Source of the DNA: Candidatus Parcubacteria bacterium
GTDB lineage: Bacteria; Patescibacteriota; Minisyncoccia; UBA6257; HR35
Assembly: GCA_026004495.1 (NCBI GenBank)
Contig: BPJG01000001.1
Span: forward strand, 70,470-134,469
Length of the DNA: 64,000 bases
Reading direction: 5' to 3'
Positions 236-24,723 of the stretch are shown one piece after another. The notes under the pieces were generated by a model. The model saw only the letters and a program-made list of their open reading frames with translations. It searched no databases and was not told the origin of the DNA. Every line of letters begins with the position of its first letter. Position 1 is the first letter of the stretch. The position numbers and the translations under genes were made by a program.

Positions 236-1502
236 TATAAAAGTAAATAAAATTTTAGACTCAAGAGGAGAATGGACAATTGATATTGAAATTGAAAGTG
301 AAGGAATAAAAGAAAAAGCCTCAATCCCTTCTGGAAAAAGTATTGGCTCTCATGAAGTTGTTTGTTTAGATTGTGAAAAAATTAAAAAGAACTTAGATGA
401 ATTGTTGAAAGATATAAAAAATAATGATTTTCAAAATCTAAAAGAATTAGATGAATTTTTAATTAAAAGAGCAGGGAAGAATAAAGAAAAATTAGGAGGT
501 AACTTTACTTTAGGAATTTCAATTAGTTTTGCTCGCGTTTTGGCTAAAAGCAAAAATTTGGAGTTGTTTGAATATTTAAAGAACGAATATGCTCTAATAA
601 TAGAAGATGAATTTAGACAAATACCAAGATTAATTTTAAATATTATTGGTGGTGGAGTACATTCTTTTAATAATTTAGATTTTCAGGAATATTGGTTGGT
701 GACGCAGAACTACGCTGAACTGACGCAGAACTACGCAGACAATAATAAAACGCAAACCAATGCGAACTATAAGCTAAATAACGCTAAATTTCAGGTGAAC
801 TTATCCGAAGGAGAAAATTATTATGAAACGCAAAGCGATAAGAACTTAATGCGACTCAAAGCAAATAAATATGAATTTCTTATTTTTTTAATCATAGAAA
901 TCATAAATATTATTAATCAACTTGAAAATAAACTACCTAAACCATTAGGAAGAAATGATGAAGGAGCATTTTGTACAAACTTTAGTGATGATTATGAACC
1001 ATTTTTATATTTAAAAGAAGTTAATAATTTTGAACTTGGAGCTGATATTGCCGCTAATCAAATAACAAAGGTAGTTAATTGGGAAAATGTTTATCGCAAA
1101 CTAAAAATTTTGGGTGTTAAATATTTAGAAGATCCTTATAGAGAAAATGAATTTGAAAAATTTGCTGAACTTCGAAAAGAAGGATTTAAAGTAATTGGCG
1201 ATGATTTAACAGTGACCAATATTGAAAGATTAAAAATTGCCTTAGATAAAAATTCTGTTGATGGTGTAATTGTTAAACCTAATCAAATTGGCACCATAAC
1301 TGAAGCATTTAATTTTGTTAAATTAGCCAAAACAAATAATTTATTTACAATTTTTTCTCATCGAAGTGGAGAAACTAATGATAATTGGATAATTGATTTA
1401 GGAATTGCTTTTGGAGCAGATTATTTTAAAATTGGTGTTCCTTTACAAGGCGAAAGAGTGGCAAAATATAATAGACTTTTAGAGATTTATGGTAAAATTT
1501 AA
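198..1502 (+). CDS. eno: Enolase (phosphopyruvate hydratase) carrying an in-frame repeat insertion around 700-790
   Basis: N-terminus INDIKVNKILDSRGEWTIDIEI...SIPSGKSIG. C-terminus SHRSGETND...GERVAKYNRLLEI. Internal NDEGAF matches enolase. The likely true start is ATG 222, which overlaps the upstream stop. Confidence 0.88.
   Translation: MKWLKNLKMKINDIKVNKILDSRGEWTIDIEIESEGIKEKASIPSGKSIGSHEVVCLDCEKIKKNLDELLKDIKNNDFQNLKELDEFLIKRAGKNKEKLGGNFTLGISISFARVLAKSKNLELFEYLKNEYALIIEDEFRQIPRLILNIIGGGVHSFNNLDFQEYWLVTQNYAELTQNYADNNKTQTNANYKLNNAKFQVNLSEGENYYETQSDKNLMRLKANKYEFLIFLIIEIINIINQLENKLPKPLGRNDEGAFCTNFSDDYEPFLYLKEVNNFELGADIAANQITKVVNWENVYRKLKILGVKYLEDPYRENEFEKFAELRKEGFKVIGDDLTVTNIERLKIALDKNSVDGVIVKPNQIGTITEAFNFVKLAKTNNLFTIFSHRSGETNDNWIIDLGIAFGADYFKIGVPLQGERVAKYNRLLEIYGKI
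700..790 (+). repeat. GC-rich dispersed repeat copy, in-frame inside eno (encodes TQNYAELTQNYADNNKTQTNANYKLNNAK)
   Basis: ACGCAGA-type motif repeated. The core 731-764 (CTACGCAGACAATAATAAAACGCAAACCAATGCG) matches copies at 1976-2010 and 2551-2585. Local GC is much higher than the surroundings. Confidence 0.7.
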
Positions 1503-1552
1503 TGATTTATATTAAAATTTAATTAAGGTCGAATTAAAAAAAATTTTAAAAA

Positions 1553-1951
1553 ATGACTTCAGATTATATTCTTTTACTTTCAAGAGTGATTTTAGGTCTT
1601 TATTTTTTATTTAGTGGTTTTGCTCATTTTAAAAATTTAAATATGATGTCGCAGTATGCTCAAAGTAAAAATGTGCCAGCTCCTAAATTGGCTGTTATTG
1701 TTACAGGTCTTTTACTTTTAGTTGGTGGTCTTTCAATTTTACTTGGTGCTTATATTCAAGTCGGGGTTTTAGCTTTAACAATTTTCTTTTTACCTGTTAG
1801 TTTTATGATGCATAATTTTTGGACTGTTCAAGATCCACAAATGAAGATGATGGAAATGATTAATTTTATGAAAAATATGGCTATCTGGGCAGGAGTTTTA
1901 GCTTTACTTTTTATCCCTCAGCCTTGGCCATTCAGTCTTAGTTTGTTCTAA
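1553..1951 (+). CDS. DoxX family membrane protein
   Basis: 132 aa with 4 TM helices. LGLYFLFSGFAHF and the overall pattern are typical of DoxX. Confidence 0.65.
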   Translation: MTSDYILLLSRVILGLYFLFSGFAHFKNLNMMSQYAQSKNVPAPKLAVIVTGLLLLVGGLSILLGAYIQVGVLALTIFFLPVSFMMHNFWTVQDPQMKMMEMINFMKNMAIWAGVLALLFIPQPWPFSLSLF

Positions 1952-1960
1952 TTTACGGTT

Positions 1961-2062
1961 ATAGACTAACGCAGACAATATTAAAACGCAAACTAATGCA
2001 AGCTGATGCGGCTAATGAAGGTATTCGCAACGGTTCGCGTGAAAGTTCGCATAGGTTCGCGA
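1961..2062. repeat. Intergenic copy of the GC-rich dispersed repeat (CTAACGCAGACAATATTAAAACGCAAACTAATGCA), followed by a GTTCGCG x3 tract
   Basis: Sequence identity of the core to copies at 731-764 and 2551-2585. Three GGTTCGCG repeats at 2032-2062. Confidence 0.7.
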
Positions 2063-2072
2063 CAAATAAAAA

Positions 2073-3941
2073 ATGAAGATATTAATTTTAGGTGGAGGAT
2101 TTGGAGGTACTTATACTTTAAAACATTTGCATAAGTTTTTTCATAATAAGAAGAAAGTAAAATTGGTATTGGTAAATAAAAAGAATTATTTTATTTTTAC
2201 GCCTTTGCTTCATGAAGTCGCTACTGGTGGAGTTTCAATCGATAATGCTTTAGAACCTATAAGAGAAATTATTAAATGTTGCGATTTTGATTTTATCCAT
2301 GGAGAAGTTGAAAAAATTGATTTAGAAAATAAAGTTGTTTATATAAATAAAGAAAGAGAAAATTATAATGTTGATTACGATTATTTAGTTATTGCTTTAG
2401 GTTCAAAAACAAATTATTATAATATTACAGGCGCTAAAGAATTTACCTTTTCTTTAAAAACAGTTGATGATGCCATAAGGCTGAAAAATAGATTTGTTCA
2501 TATGTTTGAATTAGCGAGTGTAGCGCAGACCTGCGCAGACTACACGCAGACTAACGCAGACAATATTAAGACGCAGACTGATGCGAACTACACGCAGGCT
2601 GATGCAGGCAATAATGTAGTGCAGACTAATGCAGAAAACAACGAGAATTTTCTTTATGAAGATTTAAGCTATAAAATTATAGGAATAGCTTATAAAATTA
2701 AAAAGAATTTAGGATTGGGACATAAAGAAAAAGTTTATACGAATTCCCTTGAACTTGAACTTAAAAAAGAAAATATCATTTATAAAAGAGAGGAAAAAAT
2801 CAGCGTGGTATATGATGGAAAAATAGTAGGAAACTATATACCAGATTTTGTAATAGAGGATAAAATTATTGTGGAATTAAAAACACTCCCCTTAATAGAT
2901 GAGAAGACAAAAAAGCAAATCTGGAATTATTTAAAGGGAACTAAATATAGACTTGCAATTTTGATTAATTTTGGCAAGAAAGATGTGGAAATATCTAGGA
3001 TAATTTATGATAAAGCAAGAAATTCTAATAGTCAGCAAGAGTCTGCGTCCAGTCAGAAGGTTGATAATAATGAAAGTCTGCAAAAGTCCGCGTCCAGTCT
3101 GCAAAAGTCTGAGTCTAATAAATATTTAACTTTTGTCATTGTCGGAGGTGGAGCAACTGGAGTTGAACTTGCTGGTGAAATGAGTGATTTGTTTTATAAA
3201 ACATTTAGTAAATTATATTCATCAGATTTAATTTCACAAGTTAAAATAATTCTAATCGAAAAAGGCAAAGAATTAATTCCTCAATTTTCTCCAAAATTAA
3301 GACAAAAAGCACTTGAAAGGTTAAAAAAATTAAAAGTTGATATTAGATTGGAAAGAGGAGTAATTGAAGTTGGTGAAGATTTTATTAAACTTGATGATGG
3401 TAATGTTATCGAAACAAAAACAGTTATTTGGGCAGCAGGAGTTGAAACTAATTTACCAGAAATTATTGGCAAGGTTGAAAAGGATAATAAAGGAAGATTA
3501 GTTGTAAATGAATATCTACAAGTAAAAAAGAAAATAGATATGTTAAGTCAGCAAGAATCTGCGTTAAGTCAGCAAGAGTCTGCGTACGATAATGTTTTTG
3601 CCATTGGTGATGTTTGTTGTTTTATTCAAGACCAAAAGCCTTTGCCACAATTAGCTCAAGTTGCAGTTAGACAAGTAAAAACAGTTTCTTTAAATATTAA
3701 AAATTCGATTGAAAATAAGACTTTACAAAAATTTGCTTACAAACATACTGGTGATTTAATTTCAGTTGGTAGATTTTATGCCCTAGGAGAAATTAAAGGA
3801 GTTGAATTTTCAGGTTTAATTAGTTGGTTTATTTGGAAAGGAGTTTATTTAAGCAAAATTATTTCTTTTCGAGATCAAATCAAAACATTTATTGATTGGC
3901 TTTTGAATTTATTTTTACCCAGAGATATTACTGAATTATAA
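2073..3941 (+). CDS. ndh: Type II NADH:quinone oxidoreductase (NDH-2). It is interrupted in-frame by a ~200-aa insertion (2519-3122) and a 14-aa repeat insertion (3542-3587)
   Basis: N-terminus MKILILGGGFGGTY...FTPLLHEVATGG. Second Rossmann motif LTFVIVGGGATGVELAGE. AIGDV near the C-terminus. At 622 aa it is about 200 aa longer than a typical ~420-aa NDH-2. Confidence 0.8.
   Translation: MKILILGGGFGGTYTLKHLHKFFHNKKKVKLVLVNKKNYFIFTPLLHEVATGGVSIDNALEPIREIIKCCDFDFIHGEVEKIDLENKVVYINKERENYNVDYDYLVIALGSKTNYYNITGAKEFTFSLKTVDDAIRLKNRFVHMFELASVAQTCADYTQTNADNIKTQTDANYTQADAGNNVVQTNAENNENFLYEDLSYKIIGIAYKIKKNLGLGHKEKVYTNSLELELKKENIIYKREEKISVVYDGKIVGNYIPDFVIEDKIIVELKTLPLIDEKTKKQIWNYLKGTKYRLAILINFGKKDVEISRIIYDKARNSNSQQESASSQKVDNNESLQKSASSLQKSESNKYLTFVIVGGGATGVELAGEMSDLFYKTFSKLYSSDLISQVKIILIEKGKELIPQFSPKLRQKALERLKKLKVDIRLERGVIEVGEDFIKLDDGNVIETKTVIWAAGVETNLPEIIGKVEKDNKGRLVVNEYLQVKKKIDMLSQQESALSQQESAYDNVFAIGDVCCFIQDQKPLPQLAQVAVRQVKTVSLNIKNSIENKTLQKFAYKHTGDLISVGRFYALGEIKGVEFSGLISWFIWKGVYLSKIISFRDQIKTFIDWLLNLFLPRDITEL
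2519..3122 (+). mobile_element. In-frame insertion module: left ACGCAGAC-type repeats (2519-2645), a GxxExxY / PD-(D/E)XK-like domain (about 2649-3020), then right inverted GTCTGCGT-type repeats (3031-3116)
   Basis: The domain sequence FLYEDLSYKIIGIAYKIKKNLGLGHKEKVYTNSLELELKK...IPDFVIEDKIIVELKTL...KQIWNYLKGTKYRLAILINFG matches the GxxExxY family. The flanks are reverse complements of each other (ACGCAGAC versus GTCTGCGT). The host NDH-2 resumes exactly in frame. Confidence 0.5.
3542..3587 (+). repeat. Tandem 21/22-bp repeat (GTTAAGTCAGCAAGARTCTGCG x2) inserted in-frame in ndh, encoding LSQQESALSQQESA
   Basis: Direct tandem duplication. It contains the TCTGCG(T) motif shared with the 3031-3116 repeats. 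Confidence 0.65.
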
Positions 3942-3949
3942 TTAAATTA

Positions 3950-5386
3950 ATGGAGCCTCTTTATCTATTTAACACCCTAAGTCGAAAAAAAGAAAAATTT
4001 AAACCTTTGAAAGATAAGATAGTAACGATGTATAATTGTGGACCGACTGTTTATGAAAGACCACATATTGGTAATTTAAGAGCCTATATTTTTGCTGATA
4101 CCCTAAGAAGAACGCTTGAATACAATAGCTATAAGGTCAAACAGATTATAAATATTACTGATGTTGGGCATTTAACTTCTGATGCTGATACTGGTGAAGA
4201 TAAAATTGAAAAAACTGCTCGAAAAAAAAGAAAAACTGCCTGGGAAATCTCTCACTATTTTGAAAAACTTTTTAAGGAAGATATTAAAAAATTAAATATT
4301 AAAAATCCTTTTAAGTTTCCTCGAGCAACTCAACATATAAAAGAAATAATTGAGCTTATAAAGATTCTAGAAAAAAAAGGCTATACTTACAAAATTTCTG
4401 ATGGTATCTATTTTGATACTTCTAAATTTAAAAATTATGGTGAATTAGCTGGCTTAAAGAAAAAAAAATTCATTGCCGGTGCTAGGGTTGAAATAAATCC
4501 TGAAAAAATAAATCCAACTGATTTTGCTTTGTGGAAATTCTCGCCTAAAGATATTAAAAGACAAATGGAATGGAAAAGTCCGTGGGGTATCGGTTTTCCT
4601 GGTTGGCATATTGAATGTTCAGCAATGTCAATGAAATATTTAGGTAAAACAATTGATATTCATACTGGGGGTATAGATCATATTAATATTCATCATACAA
4701 ATGAAATTGCTCAATCAGAAGCAGCAACTGGTAAAAAATTTGTTAACTATTGGCTTCATGTAAATTTTTTAAAAGTTGAAGGAGAAAAAATGTCAAAAAG
4801 TTTAGGAAATATTGTTACCCTAGAAGATATTGAGAAAAAAGGTTTTCAACCGCTTGCTTTCAAATATTTAGTTTTAACCTCCCATTATCGTTCAGAAATG
4901 AATTTCACTTGGCAAGCAATGGAATCAGCTCAAAAAGCATATAATTTAATTTTAGAAACAATCTCCAGTTTTAATCTTTCTATTAATTTGTATAAATCAC
5001 TATCTATCAACAGACAACTTTCAATTCTACATAGCTCTGCATCTAGGGAAATATTAAATATTATTAATGATGATCTTGATACTCCTCGATTAATTGCTAA
5101 ATTATGGGAAGTTTTAAGACTAAATGAAAATTTAAAATTTAAAAAAATTTTTGTTTTAAAAGCTGATAAAATTTTAGGATTGGGATTCAAAGAATTTTTA
5201 GTAAAACAAAAGTTACCAGCCAAAATTAAAAATAAAGTATTATTGAGAGAAAAGCTGAGAAAAGAAGGGAAATGGCAAGAAGCTGATAAGATTAGAGAAA
5301 AAATATTAAAAGCTGGTTATAAAATTGAAGATACTAAACAAGGCCCAATTATTAAAAAAGTCGTTATTAAAAAATTAATAAAATAA
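3950..5386 (+). CDS. cysS: Cysteinyl-tRNA synthetase
   Basis: YNCGPTVYERPHIGNLRAYIFADTLRR (HIGH region) and KMSKSLGN (KMSKS). Confidence 0.9.
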   Translation: MEPLYLFNTLSRKKEKFKPLKDKIVTMYNCGPTVYERPHIGNLRAYIFADTLRRTLEYNSYKVKQIINITDVGHLTSDADTGEDKIEKTARKKRKTAWEISHYFEKLFKEDIKKLNIKNPFKFPRATQHIKEIIELIKILEKKGYTYKISDGIYFDTSKFKNYGELAGLKKKKFIAGARVEINPEKINPTDFALWKFSPKDIKRQMEWKSPWGIGFPGWHIECSAMSMKYLGKTIDIHTGGIDHINIHHTNEIAQSEAATGKKFVNYWLHVNFLKVEGEKMSKSLGNIVTLEDIEKKGFQPLAFKYLVLTSHYRSEMNFTWQAMESAQKAYNLILETISSFNLSINLYKSLSINRQLSILHSSASREILNIINDDLDTPRLIAKLWEVLRLNENLKFKKIFVLKADKILGLGFKEFLVKQKLPAKIKNKVLLREKLRKEGKWQEADKIREKILKAGYKIEDTKQGPIIKKVVIKKLIK

Positions 5387-23188: not shown

Positions 23189-23212
23189 TGTCTAATTTGA
23201 ATATTATTTTAA

Positions 23213-23223
23213 ATTATATCACA
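23213..23223 (-). promoter_or_regulatory. Extended -10 element (TGATATAAT on the minus strand), about 25 nt upstream of the E1-like gene start
   Basis: Reverse complement of plus-strand 23213-23223 is TGTGATATAAT. Confidence 0.4.
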
Positions 23224-23272
23224 ATCAATATAGTTTTTAAAAAATTATTTATTTTTTACTTATTTATTTCTC

Positions 23273-23288
23273 AATTTCTTAAGAAATT
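23273..23288. promoter_or_regulatory. 16-bp perfect palindrome AATTTCTTAAGAAATT, a candidate operator upstream of the operon promoter
   Basis: Perfect dyad symmetry read directly from the sequence. Confidence 0.35.
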
Positions 23289-23427
23289 AAGAAAAACAAA
23301 ATTTTCTAATTTAATACATACGATGTCTTATTAATTTTTTTCATTATTCATCTCTATAGCAGAAAATAATGAAAATGCTTTGGAGTTTTGGAAAAATAAT
23401 AAAAACTTTGAATAAGGAGGTAAGACC

Positions 23428-23580
23428 ATGAGAGCCGTTCGAGTTGAAGAGCTAGAAATAATTTGTCACGAAGTAAGGCGCCGGATGTTCCAAACCATCC
23501 TCAATGCGGGAAGCGGTCATCTCTGTAGTTCGTCTTCCTCTGTGGAATGCATTTTTAGAAGTCTACAGAAATTTATAAAT
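23428..23580 (+). pseudogene. Transketolase / DXP-synthase N-terminal fragment (~45 aa of homology) behind a strong AAGGAGGT SD, then degenerate
   Basis: MRAVRVEELEIICHEVRRRMFQTILNAGSGHLCSSSSSVECIF resembles the SGHxGxSLSxxEI motif of transketolase N-termini. The ORF stops after 76 aa. Confidence 0.4.
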
Positions 23581-23893
23581 CTATATGTCTTCTGTTTAAT
23601 TTGTTTTGGTAATGTAAAATCCCATTCAGAATCTATACCCGGAGAACTGAAAGTATAAAGAAGTGATAGTCTGCTGTTTATAGAACTAGTAATTTCAAGA
23701 AGATGAGATAGAGTCATCCCATATCCGATAGAAGCAGAAACTGGTTTCTGGCTATTGTAATTGATCCCAAAAAGAAGTATTCTGCTGTCGATAAATTGTG
23801 TGGTAGTAAAATTGCTTCCGTGTATATTCTTTTGCCTACCCAGTTTTGTAGATGCCTCTCGACAAAAAATATATCAACGGCTAAAATTTATTG

Positions 23894-24723
23894 CTAAATT
23901 GAATAAAGCTCGTTGGCAATTGATGAAACCTTTTCATTTGGGTTTTTTATTTTGTGTAAAAACTCCTTGAAAACACCTCGCGCATTTGACTGATTGATTT
24001 CTAAATTTTTTAAGTAAGGGTATATTGCATTAAAAATACTAAGAAATTCTGAGTCAAACATTTGATCTATAACGCGGTCGCTCATGTTTGTACCAATTCA
24101 ATTATATCTCTCAAATGACCATTCGTCGTCTAGTTTTTCTAATGAGTCAGCAACCATGGCTTTTGCACCTGGAGGCGAAAATTTTTTTCATTTAGTTGCT
24201 TTACAGCTGGATCTTTGAATAACGGGTTAGGATAATTTAATGATTTTTCTCCGTTATGTTTAACGATAAATCTTTTCTCCTTGTAGATATCAAAGACCGA
24301 ACGAACGAATTCCTGATACAATTTGTTGTTTGTATTGAAGTAATTGTCGTAATCACAGCTTATCTGAATACTTTTCAAATCTTTCAGAATTACATCGCTA
24401 AAATAATTCAGAACGCTTATTGGTTCAGTAAATTTATACAAGTGACTTTTCGGGATCTTATAAAAATTGAAAATAAGATCTAATGTTCTTTGATCTGTAT
24501 CATTTAGTTTTCGTTTTTGTAGAAAATTTGATACTGCATTGGCAATTTTAAAAACGGTAGAACCGCTATAATGCATGCAAATTGGGAATCGAACAGAAAA
24601 TCCCTGTTTTCGTTTCCATCTAGCCCAAACGTCAGCCAATACAAAAATCCTTGCATGACTTAAACTCAGCGGGCACACCGGATGCATGTGAGCAATATCA
24701 ATAAAATATTTTTTATCTTCCAT
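23894..24723 (-). pseudogene. N-terminal fragment of a class I aminoacyl-tRNA synthetase (MetRS-like), split by a frameshift/stop near 24086-24139, with a degenerate HIGH motif
   Basis: LADVWARWKRKQGFSVRFPICMHYSGST matches MetRS ADVWVRYQRMRGHEVNF. CDYDNYFNTNNKLYQEFVRSVFDIYKEKRFI matches MetRS YDNYHSTHSEEN...GFI. Only ~260 aa are present, against more than 500 expected. GC is higher than the surroundings. Confidence 0.5.

Follow-up and report, generated by a model that had tools for sequence, protein, structure and literature searches.

In-frame insertion of a GxxExxY nuclease domain between inverted short-motif arrays in the NDH-2 gene of a Parcubacteria bacterium

Inteins with homing endonucleases are in-frame selfish elements that lie in or beside conserved motifs of conserved proteins, are expressed by the host, occur sporadically and spread by nuclease-driven homing. 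RAYT systems consist of a single nuclease-type gene with its own inverted repeats, whose variants follow the gene lineages and whose gene-less REP/REPIN copies are dispersed; the RAYT enzymes belong to the HUH/Y1 type and act on single-stranded hairpins, and REPs lie outside genes. The yeast mitochondrial GC clusters and 'byp' elements are GC-rich palindromic mobile elements of AT-rich genomes that lie inside protein-coding genes; byp elements disrupt the reading frame, the ribosome bypasses them, and they carry no nuclease. As reported, Rickettsia palindromic elements (RPEs) are short palindromic repeats lying in frame in unrelated housekeeping genes and translated as an extra peptide compatible with the host fold (PMC10969869). 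The ShiLan insertion in a phage methylase is open in the host frame, is neither intein nor intron, carries an endonuclease, evolves in a homing-like manner and is thought to loop out (PMC11855218). The intervening sequences of 23S rRNA in Coxiella and Leptospira are small selfish elements, bounded by inverted repeats and with one small open reading frame (ORF), in tolerant loops of an essential gene (PMC4990558). In this study, we analyzed a 64-kb window (the whole stretch of 64,000 nucleotides from contig BPJG01000001.1 of a hot-spring Parcubacteria bacterium), in which ndh, the gene of the respiratory enzyme type II NADH dehydrogenase (NDH-2), contains an in-frame block made of a GxxExxY nuclease domain, here called the cargo, between two inverted arrays.

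The window has a GC content of 24%. The host gene and the three parts of the block are as follows, in positions of the window.

2073–3941, plus strand: ndh, type II NADH dehydrogenase (NDH-2), 622 aa, intact apart from insertions.
2520–2639, plus strand: left array, about 8–10 units (A/G)CGCAGAC(T), mostly 10–11 nt apart, translated as VAQTCADYTQTNADNIKTQTDANYTQADAGNNVVQTNAEN.
2652–3014, plus strand: GxxExxY / PD-(D/E)XK nuclease domain (cargo), with no ATG and no stop of its own; catalytic E70, P108-D109 and E119-x-K121 (insert numbering) are intact.
3021–3122, plus strand: right array, AGTC(A/T)GCAA(G/A)AGTC(T/C)GCGTCC, the reverse complement of the left units in double units of 10 + 11 = 21 nt, translated as NSNSQQESASSQKVDNNESLQKSASSLQKSESNK.

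The extra block spans 2520–3122 (603 nt, 201 codons) and contains no stop in the host frame versus 32 in the neighboring frame. The original prediction had placed it at 2519–3122; its end is correct, but its start lies one base off the codon boundary at 2520. In the ndh product, Pfam recognizes Pyr_redox_2 in two stretches (E=7e-42) and NDH2_C, with PF13366 (PDDEXK_3) in between at residues 197–309. The relatives of the product in the PDB are NDH-2 enzymes, and NDH-2 relatives mostly measure 404–426 aa versus 622 aa for the window protein. A nucleotide alignment of the window gene with those of its two closest insert-free relatives (L057, corresponding to P0002, and L056, from bacterium HR35) shows identity that ends at GAATTAGCGAGT and resumes at AAATATTTAACTTTT. 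Between HMFELAS and (N/Q)KYLTFVIVGGGATG, a native loop of 7–9 codons is replaced by the 201-codon block, and the net gain is therefore about 193 aa. This loop lies between the helix ending in MFELAS and the NADH-binding strand LTFVIVGGGATG of NDH-2. P0002, bacterium HR35 and P0004 (88%, 82% and 73% identity, respectively) lack PF13366 and have a short loop at the site; among the best 120 NDH-2 relatives, only the window's own protein carries this domain. Judged by these alignments, the nuclease insert is an insertion and not an ancestral architecture of a group of NDH-2 enzymes. Because the closest relatives are without it, the insert should be younger than the 88%-identity split, unless it was lost repeatedly. 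As a separate observation, the native loop of bacterium HR35 (L056, about 3460–3490) reads ATATCGCAGAGTGAAGCAGCG and contains a CGCAGA unit; a lost element may have left it, the loop may be a preferred target, or the unit may occur by chance.

The cargo matches NCBIfam TIGR04256 (GxxExxY) over profile positions 2–116 of 116 with E=1.5e-34 and 118.8 bits (cutoff 35), corresponding to residues 198–311 of the ndh product, and Pfam PF13366 over positions 2–116 of 117 with E=3.3e-33 and 115 bits (cutoff 22). With these scores and a stop-free host frame, the predicted in-frame insertion of a complete GxxExxY domain with inverted repeats was confirmed, including its similarity to the GxxExxY profile. 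The motifs GHKEKVY and IPDF...VELK are both present in the cargo. Among 49 aligned sequences, 43 of which are embedded in host proteins, D109, E119 and K121 never vary, and E70 is found in 48; the P-D...E-x-K core is invariant throughout, while Q133, Y137, N150 and R160 are invariant or nearly so. Stand-alone GxxExxY proteins have about 125 aa, whereas this domain is embedded as residues 197–311 of the 622-aa NDH-2. Embedded domains begin without methionine (NFLYEDL, HLLYEDL), whereas close free-standing relatives start with MEKNNLIYEDL. That the embedded domains lack an ATG of their own but retain the catalytic residues implies translation through the host frame. The cargo has a GC content of 0.26, and both its GC and its GC at third codon positions (GC3) resemble the host composition. 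PADLOC and PHROGs gave no matches, and the domain is thus not a known defense or phage family; PF13366 itself is listed with the function 'Unknown' (PMC3424549). From its conserved sequence, the nuclease looks functional and dependent on the host frame.

The insert and the full-length protein were modeled separately in AlphaFold. Modeled with its own alignment, the insert has a domain core with a predicted local distance difference test score (pLDDT) of 96–99 and flanks of 47–61, and the left array (47–57) is predicted to be disordered. The modeled domain has a Cas4/RecB-like fold, in agreement with the PD-(D/E)XK (restriction-endonuclease-like) fold; no solved structure matching the domain by sequence was found. 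In the full-length model, the NDH-2 host parts reach 90–98. The pLDDT of the insert is low in that model because its alignment contains no sequences covering the insert.

The two arrays differ from their surroundings in composition and are highly ordered. The left-array unit ACGCAGAC occurs in seven exact copies in the window versus 0.02 expected, a count reached in 0 of 100 shuffles, and 19 matches are found at one mismatch versus 3.9 expected. All exact matches lie within 733–3585, on the plus strand to the left of the domain and on the minus strand to its right. The GC content is 0.49 in the left flank and 0.40 in the right flank versus 0.28 in the host gene, and the GC3 of the flanks is 0.49 versus a background of 0.15. 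Moreover, the flanks use the rare genome codons ACG, CAG and GCG, and with the amino acids fixed their codon log-likelihood is −1.57 versus −0.79 ± 0.07 in simulations, about 11 standard deviations below. The same organization recurs at other GxxExxY loci. Summed over 23 loci, GCRGA and TCYGC number 89 and 1 in the left flanks but 5 and 63 in the right flanks, and the distance between successive units is 10–11 nt in 45 of 67 gaps on the left and 36 of 42 on the right. The motif varies between elements, but the two arms are always reverse complements of each other, as in CGCAGAC/GTCTGCG (the window and L141), GCGAAC/GTTCGC (L003) and CCGAAT/ATTCGG (L140). Around free-standing genes, the motifs are CACGGA, CACAGA, CACGAA, GCGAAT, GCGGAT and others, with their complements. 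At least two units on each side are present at 23 of 72 free-standing GxxExxY loci from many phyla and at none of the displaced control windows, and in these genes the arrays adjoin the start and stop codons. Collectively, these patterns indicate a nucleotide-level constraint that maintains the arrays against the AT bias of the genome.

Two simpler accounts of the flanks were rejected. They do not serve as peptide linkers only, because their codons are far from genome usage and the same arrays lie outside the ORF in free-standing genes. Nor are the arrays kept open in all three frames, such that a change between 10-nt and 11-nt units would retune the frame: the coding frame has 0 stops, whereas stops in the two alternative frames number 13 and 25 for the left arrays and 0 and 16 for the right arrays. 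In the predicted RNA fold of 2505–3135, the left array pairs with the right array (z=−3.66); inverted repeats of any kind would pair in this way, and the result therefore does not discriminate between roles at the DNA and RNA levels. In addition, upstream of the GxxExxY gene in L011 and L077, the left array lies inside a longer tandem repeat (ggggagattccACGGATtatgtt, about 5 copies), which shows that arrays can expand as larger units.

To place the insert among its relatives, it was searched against 5.8 billion proteins and 1.84 billion cluster representatives and, independent of gene calling, by tblastn against species-representative genomes and metagenome contigs. The cluster representatives yielded 32 matches below 1e-30, nearly all inside long proteins. 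The closest relatives are all built alike, with T(Q/R)T(D/N)A(D/E)N in the left flank, a domain without an initial methionine and (P)R(E/Q/K)SA..S(Q/P)R(E/K)SA in the right flank. Their hosts in Patescibacteria include LepA, RecG, GatB, LeuRS, ValRS, RtcB, DHFR and the C-terminal part of transketolase, and further P-type ATPases, GT2 and GT4 glycosyltransferases, an O-antigen-ligase-like protein, AsnB and an alpha/beta hydrolase. The insertion site is constant in LepA, between VRMxY and YxLNLIDTPGH, and in RecG, which accounts for roughly 20 cases, between DEQHRFGVxQR and PHxLxMTATPIPRT. All 24 of the closest DNA-level relatives are in frame and stop-free on both sides, namely 8 of 8 genome loci found by tblastn and 16 metagenome loci (L060–L074 and L083; L061 and L062 are apparently the same sequence); with no constraint on frame, this would be expected of about 1 locus in 9. 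More distant relatives are free-standing ORFs of 124–188 codons. The window holds one GxxExxY copy, and the database search turned up no close paralogue of the ndh domain. Since the cassette lies inside many unrelated genes, it looks like a selfish element that lives in proteins without an intein. The original prediction of a mobile parasitic domain gains support from this spread over other genes, LepA, RecG and GatB among them, and free-standing ORFs. Rfam searches within 3 kb of 20 free-standing GxxExxY loci found no rRNA and no other family. In L007, one membrane glycosyltransferase (1909–4467) contains two GxxExxY domains (PF13366 in two stretches), the first of which is more divergent and has a different flanking repeat (YSADSDTFGNSDYV).

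The LepA site shows how such inserts turn over. Of the 120 nearest LepA proteins, about 55 contain an insert, and among LepA proteins 81–86% identical to the query, full alleles (L004, P0340, P0341), cargo-deleted alleles that keep the arms (P0343, 641 aa; P0391, 638 aa) and empty alleles (P0344; P0346; P0369, 598 aa) coexist. Across 47 insert-bearing LepA proteins, the divergence of the insert correlates weakly with that of the host (Mantel r=0.24). The domains of P0377 and P0398 are 87% identical with LepA C-terminal parts of 60%, those of P0351 and P0400 are 88% identical with C-terminal parts of 65%, and those of P0361 and P0393 are 46% identical with C-terminal parts of 70%. Furthermore, in a neighbor-joining tree, the domains group partly by host gene but also intermix. 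In sequence, this pattern fits repeated invasion of the same site (homing) together with occasional jumps to new hosts.

Arrays without cargo are present in the window in addition to the ndh block.

3537–3590, plus strand: second, cargo-less remnant in ndh, two right-type units AGTCAGCAAGAATCTGCGT and AGTCAGCAAGAGTCTGCGT, read as IDMLSQQESALSQQESA.
1963–2063, plus strand: intergenic cargo-less element upstream of ndh, left-type units ACGCAGAC and ACGCAAAC, then second-motif units GGTTCGCG / AGTTCGCA.
699–870, plus strand: in-frame insert in the enolase gene (ORF 198–1502), left-type units ACGCAGAA, ACGCAGAC and ACGCAAAC at 702–774, read as TQNYAELTQNYADNNKTQTNANYK...; the 3' limit is approximate.

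The ndh remnant at 3537–3590 is also found in P0002, is longer and two-armed in P0004, and is absent from bacterium HR35 and most other relatives. The second motif of the intergenic element, GGTTCGCG, is the variant used by the L003 cassette, and the element may be a hybrid or two adjacent elements; the fold of 1955–2070 around it is no better than that of shuffles (z=0.03). The enolase insert measures about 57 aa (TQNYAELTQNYADNNKTQTNANYKLNNAKF...), begins with ACGCAGA-type left units, has no recognizable right arm and matches the ndh left flank by tblastn at E=8e-4. It lies between the Enolase_N match and the recognized part of Enolase_C, which Pfam detects only from residue 295. Arrays of this type are confined to about 3 kb of the window (700–3600: enolase, intergenic and two ndh sites), with none in the other 60 kb; local hopping and gene conversion are possibilities. 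The remaining islands of high GC in the window correspond to tRNAs or normal coding sequence and contain no further arrays. Elsewhere in the window, a stretch of about 950 nt (23189–24138) is locally GC-rich and has no long ORF and no Rfam match; the start of its 76-aa ORF (23428–23658) resembles the N-terminus of the transketolase N-terminal subunit (ILNAGSGHLCSSSSSVE) and then breaks off, and the stretch may be a gene remnant.

Cargo-less arrays are also common in NDH-2 relatives. In the NDH-2 of this thermophilic Parcubacteria clade, four insertion positions recur, after FFH, VYV, MFE(K/L)A and LQVK, one of which is the site of the nuclease insert in the window. These positions are filled with cargo-less arrays of at least two motif families, by which the protein grows from about 405 aa to up to 590 aa. 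At the DNA level, n copies of a motif are followed directly by m copies of its reverse complement: CCGAAT four to six times and then ATTCGG five to seven times in L140, and N copies each of ACGCAGACT and then AGTCTGCG in L141. In L001, a 102-aa ORF with a D...D..QxK-like pattern and no Pfam match (4419–4727) directly follows a free-standing GxxExxY cassette and is itself followed by an inverted array pair (4730–4890; ACGAAT four times, then ATTCGT five times).

Based on these observations, we think it probable, though well short of certain, that the ndh block is one copy of a selfish nuclease cassette that is translated within the host protein and spreads by means of its nuclease. Such a cassette would consist of an array of a 7–8-bp motif phased at 10–11 bp, a GxxExxY PD-(D/E)XK nuclease of about 115 aa and an inverted array. 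In most bacteria, it would be a free-standing mini-gene whose start and stop codons adjoin the arrays; in a sublineage of Patescibacteria, the nuclease would have lost its own start and stop, and the cassette would lie in frame in a loop beside a conserved host motif. Expression would then come from the host promoter and ribosome-binding site, with the ribosome reading through the cassette. The arrays would become disordered hydrophilic linkers and the nuclease would fold as an extra, separate domain, so that the host enzyme could keep its fold. The nuclease may cut insert-free or array-bearing DNA, and recombinational repair would copy the cassette, with homing at established sites (LepA, RecG) and rare jumps to new loops, such as the ndh site, as the outcome. 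The arrays may be a DNA or RNA feature needed in cis, either nuclease binding sites or a hairpin, and the cargo-less arrays would be deletion derivatives, analogous to MITEs (miniature transposable elements with inverted repeats). Homing and array-directed movement of the cassette both appear compatible with these data. A wider proposal, which we advance tentatively as possible rather than probable, is that GxxExxY genes are the enzymes of an undescribed class of mobile cassettes with inverted, helically phased short-motif arrays, that the Patescibacteria branch is an intein-independent homing nuclease within proteins, and that its decay products are the in-frame low-complexity mini-inserts of candidate phyla radiation (CPR) proteins.

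Several points weigh against this explanation. An in-frame GTG (GTA GTG CAG, about 2616) lies 12 codons upstream of the domain core and is a possible internal start, and the activity and target of the nuclease are deduced from conserved residues alone. The test of insert–host incongruence uses p-distances, and the domain tree is a neighbor-joining tree of about 115 residues without support values. The GxxExxY copy in the window is single and no second NDH-2 in the databases carries one; only one occupied ndh allele is therefore known, movement is deduced from the family rather than from the ndh locus, and ndh gives no direct indication that the insert homes or has moved recently. The ndh copy could also be old, because the composition of its cargo matches the host. 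At the ndh junctions, no target-site duplication or clear footprint was seen, where the replaced native loop blurs the boundaries. Finally, the pairing potential of the arrays would fit an RNA-level function too.

The alternative that survives best, although we consider it unlikely, is transposition directed by the arrays, as with a MITE and its autonomous partner or a RAYT and its REPINs. The inverted arrays, acting as binding sites or extruded as a hairpin or cruciform, would be recognized by their own nuclease, which would mobilize array-bounded DNA, including cargo-less copies in trans; the visible copies would be those that landed in frame in tolerant loops. This account, which differs from the selfish homing cassette solely in the mode of movement, agrees with arrays that are inverted, phased at one helical turn and covarying between arms and elements, and with cargo-less elements whose motif, in the window, L003 and L001, is that of the resident cassette. 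The at least 3–4 insertion hot spots of NDH-2 with two motif families, the many different host genes and the confinement of all array sites of the window to 3 kb point the same way. However, no target-site duplication was seen, the window has only one nuclease copy, a 115-aa PD-(D/E)XK domain alone is no known transposase, and the Pfam/NCBIfam scan of the ndh block recognized only this domain and no transposase. The repeated use of one exact site each in LepA and RecG, with insert and host divergence in disagreement, fits site-specific homing better.

It is less likely still that the ndh block is an immobile relic, that is, an old, now neutral and tolerated insertion whose nuclease is inactive or unneeded and which slowly decays into a mini-insert. 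The cargo does equal the host genome in GC and GC3, it is the sole GxxExxY of the window with no close paralogue in the database search, and cargo-deleted and one-armed remnants are common. A decaying copy is nevertheless difficult to reconcile with catalytic and family-invariant residues that are all intact and with a full-length profile match. Moreover, the arrays are still GC-rich in a 24% GC genome, which argues for ongoing selection or recent arrival, and the insert-free closest relatives place the insertion after the 88%-identity split or require repeated loss.

Intein splicing was rejected as an identity of the block. Intein junctions have Cys or Ser at the first position of the insert, His-Asn at its end and Cys, Ser or Thr right after it, whereas this insert begins with V-A-Q and ends with S-N-K, followed by Y-L-T. 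No Hint or intein family of Pfam or NCBIfam matched at E<=0.01, and the absence of intein signatures claimed in the original prediction was thus borne out. A group I or II intron or another structured RNA was rejected as well: at gathering thresholds, Rfam finds four tRNAs only in the window, and a permissive scan of 1900–3700 gave only a chance CRISPR-DR match (E=0.38). Removal of the insert at the RNA or translational level, by excision of the paired-array stem and rejoining of the ends (as in an rRNA intervening sequence, with a ligase) or by ribosome bypass, would yield a host protein without the insert, and we regard it as very improbable. Such removal would accord with the pairing of the two arrays in the predicted fold (z=−3.66), with GC-rich stems in an AT-rich thermophile, which suggest a structured nucleic acid, and with the precedent of 23S rRNA intervening sequences, which are repeat-bounded, carry an ORF and are excised by RNase III (PMC4990558). 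Nevertheless, neither excision nor bypass would require that 24 of 24 closest DNA-level copies be in frame and stop-free, nor that embedded domains without an ATG keep their catalytic residues; the window has no Rfam intron or ribozyme match, and no such cut-and-rejoin pathway for mRNA is known in bacteria. Finally, adoption of the domain for a host function and a chimeric contig are both scarcely credible: RecG, among the most frequent hosts, does act on DNA, but NDH-2, LepA, DHFR, glycosyltransferases and ATPases have no DNA-related role and presence among close relatives is sporadic, while an artefact is contradicted by the same architecture in dozens of independent assemblies and by a cargo composition equal to that of the host.

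Beyond the original prediction, the analysis adds that phased 7–8-bp arrays are family-wide in GxxExxY genes, that cargo-less mini-inserts are common and that sequence evidence points to horizontal movement of the module into a fixed LepA site. Insert-bearing proteins entered the public databases with the first CPR genomes, and the literature searched, which leaves subscription-only papers outside it, holds no description of GxxExxY cassettes, their arrays or their in-frame insertion. The GxxExxY/PDDEXK_3 family thereby gains a concrete candidate role as a mobility nuclease, with a reach over a whole protein family and a whole bacterial radiation. The results suggest that a selfish nuclease may persist in essential or housekeeping proteins without protein or RNA splicing, by occupying loops beside conserved motifs and having disordered linkers, besides inteins and the ShiLan-type out-of-frame HNH nuclease, the two in-frame arrangements known so far. 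To our knowledge, the mobility enzyme of RPE-like in-frame repeats has never been found; the proposed cassette, if real, would link in-frame palindromic mini-inserts to a candidate autonomous partner and offer a candidate mechanism for such repeats. It may also explain an annotation problem of CPR genomes, namely proteins that are 40–200 aa too long, odd low-complexity stretches of the TQT/NAD/ESA kind, and misnaming. P0405, a 757-aa LepA, is labeled 'GxxExxY protein' in its NCBI record because of its embedded GxxExxY domain. Furthermore, the phased, covarying arrays would be a clean substrate for the biochemistry of DNA recognition by a minimal PD-(D/E)XK enzyme.

The cassette can be compared with the described systems. 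RAYTs resemble it in their gene-with-repeats organization, but its enzyme is of the PD-(D/E)XK type and its repeats frequently lie within genes and are translated. Unlike byp elements, the cassette always keeps the frame of its host. The 23S rRNA intervening sequences likewise combine inverted repeats with a single small ORF and occupy a loop where a conserved gene tolerates insertion; however, their host is an rRNA, they are cut by RNase III without rejoining and their ORF is of the S23p family, whereas the host of the cassette is protein-coding and the frame constraint argues for translation. The cargo-less arrays behave like RPEs (ndh 3537–3590, enolase 702–774 and NDH-2 sites 1–3 in L140/L141), and the cassette has the inverted-repeat arms and the in-frame, read-through insertion in unrelated ORFs that mark RPEs. 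RPEs are short and non-autonomous, as are the cargo-less copies but not the 603-nt, nuclease-carrying ndh copy. In addition, RPEs have no associated enzyme, whereas some copies of the cassette have a full-length nuclease between their arms; an RPE is a single imperfect palindrome, whereas the arms of the cassette are arrays of 7–8-bp units phased at 10–11 bp; and the hosts of the cassette are Patescibacteria. Like inteins, the cassette lies in frame beside conserved motifs of conserved proteins and fills the same niche, but it has no Hint domain and no splice-junction residues. It is predicted to stay in the mature protein and is therefore found in loops next to conserved motifs, not inside them. 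It shares with homing endonucleases the intact catalytic residues of a nuclease, a sporadic presence at the fixed LepA site and a disagreement between the divergence of the element and that of its host. For the cargo-bearing cassette, the closest match is ShiLan, an in-frame, non-splicing homing insertion. In ShiLan, the HNH nuclease is out of frame and has its own GTG start, whereas the PD-(D/E)XK nuclease of the cassette is in the host frame without an ATG, bracketed by inverted arrays and present in many host genes.

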